From: Escherichia coli
Lineage (GTDB): Bacteria > Pseudomonadota > Gammaproteobacteria > Enterobacterales > Enterobacteriaceae
Direction: 5' to 3' (one strand)
Assembly (NCBI RefSeq): GCF_051903065.1
Contig: NZ_CP178438.1
Length of the DNA stretch: 64,000 nt
In this document: piece after piece, positions 40,912-45,580 of the stretch
How the letters are laid out: every line of letters begins with the position of its first letter
How positions within the stretch are numbered: the first letter of the stretch is position 1
Notes under the pieces: model-generated
Databases searched by the model: none
Told to the model about the DNA's origin: nothing
The model's input: only the letters and a program-made list of their open reading frames with translations
Program-made: the position numbers and the translations under genes

Positions 40912-41787
40912 ATGGCAGATTTAGACGATATTAAAGATGGTAAAGATTTTCGTACCGATCAACCGCAAAAAAATATCCCTTTTACCCTGAAAGGTTGCGG
41001 TGCGCTGGATTGGGGAATGCAGTCACGCTTATCGCGGATATTTAATCCGAAAACGGGTAAAACCGTGATGCTGGCTTTTGACCATGGTTATTTTCAGGGA
41101 CCGACTACCGGACTTGAACGCATTGATATAAATATCGCCCCGCTGTTTGAACATGCCGATGTATTAATGTGTACGCGCGGCATTTTGCGCAGCGTAGTTC
41201 CCCCGGCGACCAATAAGCCGGTGGTACTGCGGGCGTCAGGTGCGAACTCTATCCTGGCGGAATTAAGCAATGAAGCCGTGGCGTTATCGATGGATGACGC
41301 CGTGCGCCTGAACAGTTGCGCGGTGGCGGCGCAGGTTTATATCGGCAGCGAATATGAACATCAGTCGATCAAAAATATTATTCAGCTGGTCGATGCCGGA
41401 ATGAAAGTGGGAATGCCGACCATGGCCGTGACTGGCGTGGGCAAAGATATGGTGCGCGATCAGCGTTATTTCTCGCTCGCGACTCGAATCGCCGCTGAAA
41501 TGGGGGCGCAAATTATCAAAACCTATTATGTCGAAAAAGGTTTTGAACGGATTGTTGCCGGATGTCCGGTACCCATTGTTATTGCTGGCGGTAAAAAATT
41601 ACCGGAGCGCGAGGCGCTGGAAATGTGCTGGCAGGCTATCGATCAGGGCGCTTCTGGTGTGGATATGGGGCGTAATATTTTCCAGTCTGACCATCCGGTG
41701 GCGATGATGAAAGCCGTACAGGCGGTGGTACACCATAACGAAACGGCTGATCGGGCATATGAACTCTATCTGAGTGAAAAACAGTAA
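40912..41787 (+). CDS. lsrF: LsrF (class I aldolase-like thiolase for phospho-AI-2 degradation)
   Basis: 291 aa. Confidence 0.95.
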
Positions 41788-41809
41788 CTGCGGATTAAGG
41801 AGAAGAAAC

Positions 41810-42100
41810 ATGCACGTCACACTGGTTGAAATTAACGTTCATGAAGACAAGGTTGACGAGTTTATCGAAGTTTTTCGCCAGAACCACCTGGGCTCGGTAC
41901 AGGAAGAAGGCAATTTGCGCTTCGATGTCTTACAGGACCCGGAAGTGAATTCGCGCTTTTATATCTACGAAGCCTATAAAGATGAAGACGCAGTGGCGTT
42001 CCATAAAACCACGCCCCACTACAAAACCTGTGTCGCGAAACTGGAATCTTTAATGACCGGGCCGCGTAAAAAACGTCTGTTCAATGGGTTGATGCCGTGA
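41810..42100 (+). CDS. lsrG: LsrG (phospho-AI-2 isomerase, ABM monooxygenase fold)
   Basis: ORF from 41774, but the protein matches LsrG from [14 protein letters not shown] (96 aa). Confidence 0.9.
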
Positions 42101-42585
42101 GGCGAATTTATCCGGTGCGCCGTAAAACCCCGTCCTTCAGGGCGGGGATATAAGGCGCGGTTTTCCACCTGACCAGGTGTTTGCTGTTGTTCAATGTATT
42201 GGCGGATGACGGATATTGGCGCACCTCCGCAGCTACTGGCAAAATAGCCAGGACTCCACAAAACGCCTTTGTAGTAATACCTGACTGCAATATCTGGTCG
42301 ATCTCGTCGCAGTAACCTACCTGATACGCTTTTGAGGCTGTTTACCAGACTGGATATCGCCAGTTTGGGAGGATAGTTAATTAACAAATGGACGTGATCT
42401 GGTTCGCCATCCATTTCAACCAGTTCAGCTTCAAAATCAGCACATACATTTGAAAAGTAAGTGCGTAGTTTTTCTGTCGCGTCATGGTCAAAAATCTGGC
42501 GTCGGTATCTGGTGACAAAGACCATGTGAACATGCTTCAGGAAAACACAATGCCTTCCACGCCGGATATCTGTTTCTTTTTTCAC
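42019..42585 (-). CDS. tnpA: IS200/IS605 TnpA (Y1 HUH tyrosine transposase); conserved core about 42180-42585
   Basis: HUH motif DHVHLL and catalytic-Tyr region [15 protein letters not shown]; the ORF lacks a stop at the expected point and continues antisense into lsrG. Confidence 0.7.
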
Positions 42586-43903
42586 AGACCAAAATATAAT
42601 TTGACCTGTGAAACGACTACAGGCATTTAAATTCCAGTTAAGACCCGGTGGTCAACAGGAGCGTGAAATGAGGCGCTTCGCAGGCGCATGTCGTTTCGTT
42701 TTCAATCGTGCTCTGGCACGTCAGAATGAGAATCATGAGGCCGGTAATAAATACATCCCTTACGGGAAAATGGCTTCCTGGCTGGTTGAGTGGAAAAATG
42801 CCACTGAAACGCAATGGCTTAAAGATGCCCCGTCACAGCCATTGCAACAGTCACTGAAAGACCTTGAGTGGGCTTACAAAAACTTCTTCCAGAAGCGGGC
42901 TGCTTTTCCCCGATTCAAAAAGCGGGGACAGAATGATGCATTCCGCTACCCGCAGGGCGTTAAGCTCGATCAGGAAAACAGCCGTATTTTTCTGCCGAAA
43001 CTGGGCTGGATGCGCTACCGGAATAGCCGTCAGGTCACGGGTGTTGTGAAAAATGTCACGGTCAGCCAGTCCTGCGGTAAGTGGCACATCAGTATTCAGA
43101 CAGAAAGTGAAGTATCAACTCCGGTTCACCCTTCAGCATCAATGATCGGGCTGGATGCTGGCGTGGCTAAACTCGCCACGCTGTCAGATGGCACAGTCTT
43201 TGACCCTGTAAACAGTTTTCAGAAAAACCAGAAGAAGCTGGCGAGACTTCAGCGACAGTTCAGCCGCAAGGTCAAATTCAGCAACAACTGGCAGAAGCAG
43301 AAACGCAAAATACAGCGACTGCATTCCCGTATCGCAAATATCCGCAGGGACTACCTTCACAAAGTCACAACGACCGTCAGCAAAAACCACGCAATGATAG
43401 TCATTGAGGATTTGAAGGTCAGCAACATGTCAAAGTCAGCAGCGGGTACGGTCAGCCAGCCGGGGCGCAATGTCCGGGCAAAATCAGGTTTAAACCGTTC
43501 GATACTGGATCAGGGCTGGTATGAAATGCGTCGCCAGCTTGAGTACAAGCAGCTCTGGTGTGGCGGTCAGGTGCTTGCTGTTCCGCCAGCGTACACAAGC
43601 CAGCGTTGCGCGTGCTGTGGTCATACAGCGAAAGAAAATCGCGTGTCACAAAGTAAATTCAGATGCCAGGTATGTGGATATACAGCGAACGCCGATGTAA
43701 ACGGCGCTCGTAACATTTTAGCGGCGGGGCACGCCGTTCTTGCCTGTGGAGGGATGGTGCAGTCAGGCCGCCCGTTGAAGCAGGAACCCACCGAAATGAT
43801 TCAGGCGACAGCCTGAACGTAGCAGGATCCTCGTCATTCAGGGCGTGGAGGATGTCAACAGTTTTATCTACAATTGGGGTAACGCGCTGACGGGAGTAAA
43901 AAA
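42101..43903. mobile_element. IS200/IS605-family insertion element (divergent tnpA and tnpB); ends approximate
   Basis: Y1/HUH transposase and TnpB encoded back to back, filling the interval between the lsrG stop and the tam start codon. Confidence 0.6.
42608..43816 (+). CDS. tnpB: TnpB (IS605 OrfB family, RuvC-like RNA-guided endonuclease)
   Basis: 402 aa; RuvC-I IGLDAGV, RuvC-II IVIEDL, Ruv[14 protein letters not shown], and zinc finger CACCGH...CQVCG. Confidence 0.8.
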
Positions 43904-44662
43904 ATGTCTGACTGGAACCCCTCTTTATATCTGCACTTTGCCGCTAAACGATCGCGTCCGGCGGTGGAGCTGCTTGCCAGAGTGCCGCTGGAGAATGTCG
44001 AATATGTTGCCGATCTTGGCTGTGGCCCAGGTAACAGCACCGCCCTTCTACAACAACGTTGGCCTGCTGCCAGGATAACGGGCATCGACTCATCTCCGGC
44101 GATGGTTGCCGAAGCACGCAGTGCTTTGCCGGACTGCCAGTTTGTGGAAGCAGATATCCGCAATTGGCAACCGGAACAGACACTCGATCTGATTTTTGCT
44201 AATGCCTCACTGCAATGGCTGCCCGACCACTACGAATTGTTTCCTCATCTGGTTTCGTTACTTAATCCGCAGGGCGTGCTGGCAGTACAGATGCCAGATA
44301 ACTGGCTGGAGCCGACCCATGTGCTCATGCGCGAAGTTGCCTGGGAACAAAACTACCCGGATCGCGGGCGTGAGCCGCTGGCAGGCGTTCATGCTTACTA
44401 CGATATTTTGAGCGAAGCCGGATGTAAGGTCGATATCTGGCGAACCACTTACTATCATCAGATGCCGTCGCACCAGGCGATTATCGATTGGGTGACCGCC
44501 ACTGGATTACGTCCGTGGTTACAGGATCTGACCGAGAGCGAACAGCAGCATTTTCTTACGCGCTACCATCAGATGTTGGAAGAGCAGTATCCACTGCAAG
44601 AGAACGGACAGATACTGCTGGCATTTCCGCGTCTGTTTATTGTTGCCCGGCGTACGGAGTAA
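43904..44662 (+). CDS. tam: Trans-aconitate 2-methyltransferase
   Basis: 252 aa with SAM-binding motif DLGCGPG. Confidence 0.9.
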
Positions 44663-44665
44663 GTA

Positions 44666-45580
44666 TCACGTCAGCTGGTAATGACGATCGGGAAGAATTT
44701 TTGCTGGAATTTCGGCTTCATCGTTCATCTGTAACAGGTCAATTTCAATAGCGTTGCAGATGGCATCCAGTGGTAAATCATTGTTTTCAATACCGAACGG
44801 ATCTTCCAGTTCTTCCGCCAGACAATCCAGCGAAATAAAAGTGTAGGAAATCAGCACAGAGATAAAAGGCGTCATGTAATGCAGGTCCACGACCAGCGCG
44901 AACGGCAGCATGATACAAAACAGATAAACGGTACGATGCAAAATCAGGGTGTAGGCAAAGGGAATTGGCGTGTAGGCAATGCGCTCGCAGCCTGCCAGAA
45001 CCGCTGAAATATCGTTAAGCCGATCGTTGAGGCTAATAAACAGGATATCTGAAAGCTGCCCATTGCGGCGCTGAACCGCCAACCATTCTCCCATTATTAA
45101 CAAGATACGGTTAGCTGGAGAGTTCGAAGCCAGTACACGCTGAAGATCTTCAGTCTTGAGATAATGAGCCAGCACTTCCGCCTGTGGCTGTTTGCGTAAT
45201 GTCATGCGTAAACAGTGGGCGAAAGCGATTTGCAGCCGGGCAAACTCCCTTACACTTGCCGAATCCGGCAATGTCGTTTTTACCTCGCGCAGTAACGACC
45301 GCGAGGCAATCATCAACTGCCCCCAAAGTTTTCGCGCTTCAACGTAACGGGCGTAACCAGCATTATTACGAAAACCAAGAAAAATGGCGATGGCGACACC
45401 GAGAATGCTGAACGGTGCGAGGGTGAATTTAATGCCCAAATGCGTGTACCAGGGCAGCATGAAAATAACAGCGATAGAAAAGACAAAATTGAGTAGTAAG
45501 CGCGAGGATATCTTGGATAATACTGAACCGTGCCAGACAAAAATACGGCGCAGCCAGTGTTGTTGTGGACGAACAATCAT
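44666..45580 (-). CDS. yneE: Bestrophin-family membrane protein YneE
   Basis: ORF to 45631, but the protein matches from MIVRPQQHWLRRIF (304 aa). Confidence 0.85.
   Translation of the reverse strand: MIVRPQQHWLRRIFVWHGSVLSKISSRLLLNFVFSIAVIFMLPWYTHLGIKFTLAPFSILGVAIAIFLGFRNNAGYARYVEARKLWGQLMIASRSLLREVKTTLPDSASVREFARLQIAFAHCLRMTLRKQPQAEVLAHYLKTEDLQRVLASNSPANRILLIMGEWLAVQRRNGQLSDILFISLNDRLNDISAVLAGCERIAYTPIPFAYTLILHRTVYLFCIMLPFALVVDLHYMTPFISVLISYTFISLDCLAEELEDPFGIENNDLPLDAICNAIEIDLLQMNDEAEIPAKILPDRHYQLT

Follow-up and report, generated by a model that had tools for sequence, protein, structure and literature searches.

The question raised by this locus is why the reading frame of a transposase gene, tnpA, has no stop codon inside its own insertion sequence and runs on in antisense into the neighboring gene lsrG, and what the GC-rich hairpin at the same junction is. 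The window analyzed here is a stretch of 64,000 nucleotides of Escherichia coli DNA, numbered from its first letter. The original prediction offered two explanations for the open frame, a truncated left end or a lost transposase stop, either of which would leave the element immobile with an intact TnpB, and two for the hairpin, a recognition hairpin of the transposase or the displaced terminator of the lsr operon. Our analysis places 42019-42160, with high confidence, at the junction of lsrG and the left end of a complete IS609 copy; the hairpin is the left imperfect palindrome (IPL) of that element, the tnpA stop is point-mutated, and the copy is most likely non-autonomous. No evidence contradicting this anatomy was found. 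The genes surrounding the junction are as follows.

40912-41787, + strand: lsrF (ORF listing of 41400-44800)
41810-42100, + strand: lsrG, flanking gene, itself uninterrupted, its 3' part lying under the antisense tnpA run-on
42585 (GTG) to 42019, − strand: 188-aa ORF, tnpA (ORF listing)
43904-44662, + strand: tam, right-hand flanking gene

The stretch 41800-44100 (2,301 nt) was used as a megablast query against 5,426 complete E. coli genomes. The whole stretch was present in just 30 genomes, the segment from 42107/8 to 43858-60 recurred at many chromosomal sites, and in other genomes lsrG and tam were directly adjacent. Without the element the lsrG-tam spacer is 57 nt long, and IS609 sits within it (42101-43903 in the window). 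IS609 copies at other chromosomal sites showed full-length identities of 96.5-98.3%, with similarity stopping exactly at 42112 and 43858. The tnpA of these near-identical copies is named 'IS200/IS605-like element IS609 family transposase' by PGAP.

The ends were fixed by the flanks of copies at eight distinct sites and by the empty lsrG-tam site (locus L003). The empty site was scarless and joined GAATTTAT directly to CAGTTTTATC; the occupied site consisted of GAATTTAT, the element from CCGGTGCG to GGATGTCAA, and CAGTTTTATC, with no bases missing, and comparison of the two revealed no target duplication. YTTAT stood directly 5' of CCGGTGCG at all eight distinct sites, as TTTAT at most of them and as CTTAT at the DUF1869-yeaQ and yedK sites. 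The left end could be aligned with copies at seven other sites right down to its final base. The right terminus was ...GATGTCAA in all copies compared, followed by a base that varied. The resulting boundaries are listed below.

42107-42111, + strand: target pentanucleotide TTTAT, outside the IS; left cleavage site and predicted TnpB TAM (flank comparison)
42112-43858, + strand: complete IS609 copy (IS200/IS605 family), 1,747 bp, with divergent tnpA and tnpB (full-length identity to other copies; flanks)
43849-43858, + strand: final 10 nt of the right end, AGGATGTCAA, closing with the right cleavage tetranucleotide TCAA

The copy is a member of the catalogued IS609 and displays every IS200/IS605 structural feature tested here. 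It was inserted 3' of TTTAT in the 57-nt spacer, and no target duplication arose.

The stop-less frame itself, said originally to cover lsrG in antisense for 27 codons, was real. The tnpA ORF terminated at the TAG 42021-42019, within lsrG antisense, and overlapped lsrG by 82 nt (~27 codons). Its parts are the following.

42172-42600, − strand: canonical 143-codon tnpA body (Y1 HUH transposase), with ATT as first codon and the GTG at 42585 as codon 6
42169-42171, − strand: mutated tnpA stop, CAG here and TAG in canonical IS609 and the out-groups
42019-42168, − strand: read-through tail of 50 codons plus stop

The frame was open for five codons beyond the GTG, up to 42600, where other copies have ATG and the window has ATT. 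The 50 codons of the tail came from the left end (20 codons), the target (~2 codons), and lsrG antisense (~27 codons). In Pfam the ORF matched Y1_Tnp PF01797 (E = 5.3e-40) with residues 14-134 over model positions 2-121 of 121, and in NCBIfam it matched NF033573 (IS200 TnpA, E = 1.8e-41). The solved TnpAs of IS608 and ISDra2 also matched, and the HUH motif (H-V-H) and the catalytic Tyr were conserved in the tnpA alignment and aligned to these solved TnpAs. The conserved Y1 domain ended at residue 134 of the 188-aa ORF (~42184) and the ancestral stop lay at 42171-42169; the core end had previously been placed too far downstream, near residue 150 and 42140.

On the + strand the stop codon differed by a single base, CTG in the window vs CTA in the O157:H7 copy L004, whose intact 143-aa TnpA (WP_000604943.1) PGAP calls 'IS200/IS605-like element IS609 family transposase'. 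TAG and an annotated intact TnpA of 143 aa were found in L004, L012, L013, and L019. The Proteus and Salmonella elements likewise carried TAG in this position, with the left-end hairpin following ~20 nt later. Of the 120 top-ranking database relatives, 72 ended right after ...Q[QE]TPx, the canonical position, and the aligned proteins of Salmonella, Photorhabdus, Morganella, Proteus, Klebsiella, and Yersinia ended ...QQQTP[G/S/D]. The out-genus TnpA relatives were 138-146 aa long with 80-87% identity, and the solved TnpA structures (133-159 aa) ended at the canonical stop point or at most ~18 residues after it. As TnpA homologues and out-group DNA stop at 42171-42169, a stop at this codon is the ancestral state, and the allele of the window has lost it. 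The run-on of the ORF thus comes from a point mutation of TAG to CAG at 42171-42169, the codon at which the 143-aa IS609 TnpA and the out-groups stop, and the suggestion of a lost transposase stop was borne out. In the genome matching 41800-44100 at 100% (NZ_AP045789.1, where the query matched 3 places), PGAP annotated tnpA as a pseudogene 'missing C-terminus'.

The gene tnpA is transcribed leftwards toward the left end, and a single transition turned its stop into CAG. By chance the left end is free of stops in the tnpA frame, which therefore remains open through the target and into lsrG antisense until a chance TAG. The length of the run-on was unremarkable, since ~49 stop-free codons after the lost stop have a p of roughly 0.1 under uniform codon usage. 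Intact family members having a TnpA of about 188 aa and an identical tail had been named as the observation that would refute the original prediction; this was not what we found, as the tails differed from site to site. The 50-residue tail is an insertion-site by-product and not a conserved domain. For annotation, the 188-aa ORF is neither a novel fusion protein nor a sign of truncation; it is the usual stop-less IS609 tnpA allele.

Two other sources of the CAG were considered and rejected. A sequencing error was ruled out by the presence of the allele in 4,198 genomes, and an origin at a Dcm hotspot was ruled out because the mutated C lies outside the neighboring CCWGG. Among the related proteins, the frameshifted tnpA variants P0024, P0029, P0035, P0052, and P0118 all ended ...LRRTG. 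Their stop is a TAA formed from the last left-end bases and the target (GGA followed by TAAA), so that the target supplies the stop in one alternative frame. A metagenomic relative, P0079 (83% identity, 239 aa), had Gln at the stop position and a long tail, and may have lost its stop independently, in a lineage other than E. coli IS609.

The hairpin was found 3 nt to the left of the coordinates first given for it (42131-42150). The palindromes of the two ends are given below.

42128-42147, + strand: left subterminal imperfect palindrome (IPL), 8-bp stem with T.G at stem position 6, loop TTCA
42117-42158, + strand: extended left-end palindrome, outer stem GCGCC/GGCGC around the IPL
43829-43848, + strand: right-end subterminal palindrome (IPR), degenerate, CCTCGTCA-TTCA-GGGCGTGG, with two stem mismatches

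The IPL (CCCCGTCC-TTCA-GGGCGGGG) started 16 nt from the cleavage point and 28 nt downstream of the lsrG stop. The left end folded as DNA with an MFE of −14.7 kcal/mol (z = −2.5; 4 of 200 shuffles were equally good). As minus-strand RNA it gave −25.8 kcal/mol (z = −2.1), and the RNA of the TAG-allele copy L004 gave −31.6 kcal/mol (z = −3.8). The IPL 20-mer occurred once in the window, and its sole relative within 3 mismatches was 43829-43848 on the same strand; 100 shuffled versions of the window yielded 0 matches for the 20-mer and this 3-mismatch right-end partner. The exact 20-mer was present in 18 of the 21 fetched IS609-bearing loci, with one SNP in each of the other three; the empty lsrG-tam site (L003) lacked it. 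In the Proteus relative the hairpin was conserved, and the stem position that is T.G in IS609 was there again a non-Watson-Crick pair, C.T. Palindromes thus stood at both ends on the + strand, subterminal and without terminal inverted repeats. We identify the hairpin from these comparisons as the IS609 left subterminal imperfect palindrome, an end structure, in agreement with the first of the two roles originally proposed: it travels with the element and has a right-end partner. Binding by TnpA is inferred from IS608 and ISDra2; Y1 TnpA would bind the IPL on the single-stranded top strand, with cleavage 16 nt upstream, after TTTAT. In annotation, the hairpin should be treated as an IS end and not as a host regulatory signal.

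The remaining two suggestions of the original prediction fared poorly. Apart from the absence of a stop within the element, nothing spoke for a truncated left end that had lost the stop with the missing DNA. The left end is collinear with seven other loci and preceded by YTTAT, the empty site is scarless, and the canonical stop, 57-59 nt inside the left end, is still in place and differs by one base; truncation is refuted. A displaced Rho-independent lsr terminator would suit the GC-rich stem and its place 28 nt past the lsrG stop. However, where the element is missing, the spacer between lsrG and tam has no hairpin, and copies of IS609 at loci unrelated to this one carry it in the same position. 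The + strand 3' of the IPL reads ATATAAGG, which is not a T-run, and a consensus terminator scan, which requires at least 5 T in 8, reported the IPL on neither strand. Because it is present in copies at every site examined and absent from empty sites, the hairpin is not the lsr terminator, and we give that reading next to no credence.

The two states of the tnpA stop were typed with 35-nt queries centered on the variant base; every 28-nt megablast seed contains this base, and the queries are therefore allele-specific. In the set of 5,426 complete E. coli genomes, the CAG 35-mer had 6,621 hits spread over 4,198 genomes and the TAG 35-mer had 1,583 hits spread over 1,411 genomes (~26%), so CAG made up ~81% of the allele-typed IS609 copies. 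CAG is an old, common IS609 allele of E. coli and not peculiar to the window copy. In a public protein collection, at least 11 distinct flank-encoded read-through tails were present, some in clusters of more than 1,000 member sequences. The 20 residues encoded by the left end were common to all stop-less copies, and the rest of the tail differed per insertion site. Both alleles (element position 60) occurred at the same orthologous insertion in four loci.

TetR/ytfB site: TAG in L004, L013, and L019; CAG in L005
gltX-yfeD site: TAG in L015; CAG in L007 and L018
yidH site: TAG in L010; CAG in L011
DUF1869-yeaQ site: TAG in L012 and L014; CAG in L016

IS609 copies were 1-3% apart whether or not they occupied the same site, and the SNPs among them were mosaic. 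Pairwise differences overlapped, with 1-39 within sites (17-39 barring one near-identical pair) vs 22-50 between sites. A tree of 14 full-length copies, considered as a way to recognize a single CAG origin and its spread, was rejected as uninformative on these grounds: with mosaic SNPs among copies that exchange sequence, a tree cannot tell how CAG spread. The presence of two alleles at the same sites, together with the mosaic SNPs, suggests either that IS609 copies undergo gene conversion or that this one base changes recurrently. We interpret the sampled IS609 sites as old, mostly vertically inherited insertions that exchange sequence.

The lsrG-tam insertion was found in 29-30 of the 5,426 genomes, in varied hosts. 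All six copies examined at this site were CAG, with identical left and right ends. The start codon was ATG in three of the six and ATT in three, including the window copy, and frameshifts were present in two. Since all six were CAG, the element was probably already stop-less when it arrived, and the change to ATT would probably be later. It could have moved to lsrG-tam by its own TnpA or by a TnpA in trans. The 138-aa out-group proteins are annotated as starting where the window copy has its codon-6 GTG; this and the intact catalytic residues make translation of an extended TnpA possible.

The second gene of the element, as originally stated, was intact.

42608-43816, + strand: tnpB (InsQ), RNA-guided endonuclease, 402 aa, intact (Pfam, NCBIfam, and structure match)

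In Pfam the protein matched PF12323, PF01385, and PF07282, and in NCBIfam NF040570 (guided_TnpB, E = 7e-113); the family matches were full-length, with RuvC and zinc-ribbon domains. Residues 3-376 matched ISDra2 TnpB 8bf8 (E = 6e-56). By ORF comparison, with PGAP annotation in addition for L013 and L019, tnpB was intact in 19 of 21 fetched copies, whereas tnpA had the canonical form in 4, lacked the stop but was otherwise open in 7, and was broken by a frameshift or internal stop in 10. The pN/pS was 0.30 for tnpB (17 intact copies) vs 0.53 for tnpA (9 intact copies). In this small, non-random sample, tnpA was open in 7 of 14 stop-less copies vs 4 of 7 TAG copies, and stop-less copies were broken no more often. 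The tnpA of the K-12 IS609 had CAG and an internal stop. K-12 IS609 gave 0 transpositions in mutation-accumulation lines (PMC5009759); this was the sole functional datum found in the IS609 literature, which consisted mostly of resistome surveys. A literature search on insQ with TnpB gave nothing relevant. The window tnpA is probably non-functional or at best non-canonical, and the window copy is most likely non-autonomous; it would retain its TnpB/guide-RNA module and be mobile only with a canonical TnpA in trans. The K-12 result and the drift of IS605-family elements to TnpB-only forms agree with this reading. Immobility of this copy through the stop loss, as first suggested, is plausible.

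Three further explanations were weighed. The stop-less tnpA may be a working allele, whose open-ended C-terminus is tolerated or used, so that stop-less elements transpose autonomously. CAG is the majority allele (~81% of typed copies) and is found with at least 11 flank-encoded tails, i.e., at many insertion sites; the rare lsrG-tam insertion was CAG in every copy examined, and the catalytic residues of TnpA are intact. The IS608 TnpA (155 aa) likewise has a tail of ~18 aa beyond its core, the match ending at residue 137. However, all aligned out-genus relatives (80-87% identity) keep the stop at that codon, the tails have nothing in common past the 20 residues encoded by the left end, and half of the sampled CAG copies have further frameshifts or stops. 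Mosaic SNPs and the occurrence of both alleles at orthologous sites show that CAG can spread by gene conversion or recombination without transposition, and ~26% of genomes have a TAG copy that could act in trans. The K-12 copy did not move (PMC5009759). We consider an autonomously working stop-less allele unlikely.

The left-end hairpin followed by UUUUAC could instead terminate tnpA transcription, in which case CAG would give a non-stop mRNA, with ribosome stalling, tmRNA tagging, and degradation of TnpA. The minus-strand RNA does fold alike, more strongly in L004 than in the window copy, and the canonical and out-group stop ~20 nt before the hairpin gives the usual stop-then-terminator layout. 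However, on the minus strand (tnpA sense) the stem contains a C.A mismatch and is followed by just four U, and the criteria of the terminator scan were failed; this mechanism is again improbable, to about the same degree as a working stop-less allele. Somewhat more doubtful still is the proposal that TAG to CAG is a recurrently favored 'taming' allele and not random decay: with the stop gone directly before a hairpin that would terminate tnpA transcription, a non-stop tnpA mRNA or a TnpA with site-specific tails would shut off excision and keep TnpB and its guide RNA. If true, it would explain the dominance of CAG, its co-existence with TAG at orthologous sites, and the purifying selection on tnpB. 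The preferred reading is still a complete IS609 with a point-mutated tnpA stop and most likely no autonomous mobility.

Compared with known systems, the window element is a copy of the IS609 of E. coli, which in K-12 comprises insQ and a tnpA pseudogene, with the same ends, divergent layout, and TnpB. It differs from the usual IS609 in its uncommon lsrG-tam site, in CAG (the majority allele) for TAG, in ATT for ATG, and in a right-end hairpin that is 1 nt shorter and mismatched. In IS200 of Salmonella, a hairpin close to one end acts as a terminator and another occludes the ribosome-binding site; that element lacks tnpB, and the direction of its tnpA is away from the left end. IS609 resembles IS200 in having a structured end close to tnpA and, at 42605-42623, a small hairpin that covers the tnpA ribosome-binding region. 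The IS609 hairpins may have roles in transcription or translation.

IS608 of H. pylori, the mechanistic model of the family, shares the Y1 HUH TnpA (2a6m, E = 2e-18), and its proteins show only distant similarity to those of IS609. IS608 has subterminal palindromes on one strand, both bound by TnpA on the top strand; its target TTAC lies 19 nt from the left hairpin, and its right end TCAA lies 10 nt past the hairpin (PMC3201880). Left cleavage follows the target outside the element, and there is no target duplication and excision is scarless (PMC3201880). IS609 likewise has an external target, TCAA 10 nt after the right hairpin, and no duplication, whereas its target is YTTAT at 16 nt. In IS608, tnpA and tnpB are co-directional and the 3' end of tnpA does not face the left end, unlike the divergent IS609. 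TnpB-only elements of the IS605 family are non-autonomous, and their mobilization would depend on TnpA in trans (Meers et al., bioRxiv 10.1101/2023.03.14.532601). The window copy resembles them in keeping the ends, TnpB, and a putative guide RNA with a decayed tnpA, but its tnpA is present and nearly full-length, with decay at an early, point-mutation stage. The stop-less majority, the two alleles at the same sites, and the intact tnpB together illustrate the drift of IS605-family elements to TnpB-only, non-autonomous forms. The catalogued element, the annotation of its tnpA as a pseudogene, and this kind of decay were already known. What is added here is that CAG is the majority allele, that it shares insertion sites with TAG, and that the target is YTTAT; these points are population-genetic detail and not a new system.

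At the right end, Rfam HgcC (RF00062) matched 43749-43871 (+), over the tnpB 3' end and right end, with 23.6 bits (E = 0.012), below the gathering score of 50. Among the curated guide-RNA families of Rfam, only sub-threshold matches to HgcC and RAGATH-18 were found near the right end. The HgcC-like stretch probably represents the scaffold of a guide (omega) RNA for TnpB; the guide would be the flank CAGTTTTATCTACAAT... and the TAM would be TTTAT. The window IPR folded no better than shuffles (z = +0.2); in its place, CCACGTCC...GGGCGTGG is found in the copies of K-12, AR435, and Proteus. Its two stem mismatches were common to copies at four or more sites and represent a common variant. A 1-nt deletion near the IPR (43820-43830), GCAGGATCC vs GCAGGGATCC, was seen in lsrG-tam copies only.

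Beyond the right end, tam now lies 1.75 kb from the lsr genes owing to IS609, and tnpB is co-oriented with it. In K-12, lsrG and tam are adjacent and co-transcribed; read-out from IS609 may now drive tam. Between the two genes of the element, the starts of tnpA and tnpB are divergent and 7 nt apart (42600 and 42608). The hairpin CCTGTGAAACGACTACAGG (42605-42623) spans the tnpB GTG and on the other strand contains AGG just upstream of the tnpA start, and it may occlude translation initiation as in IS200.
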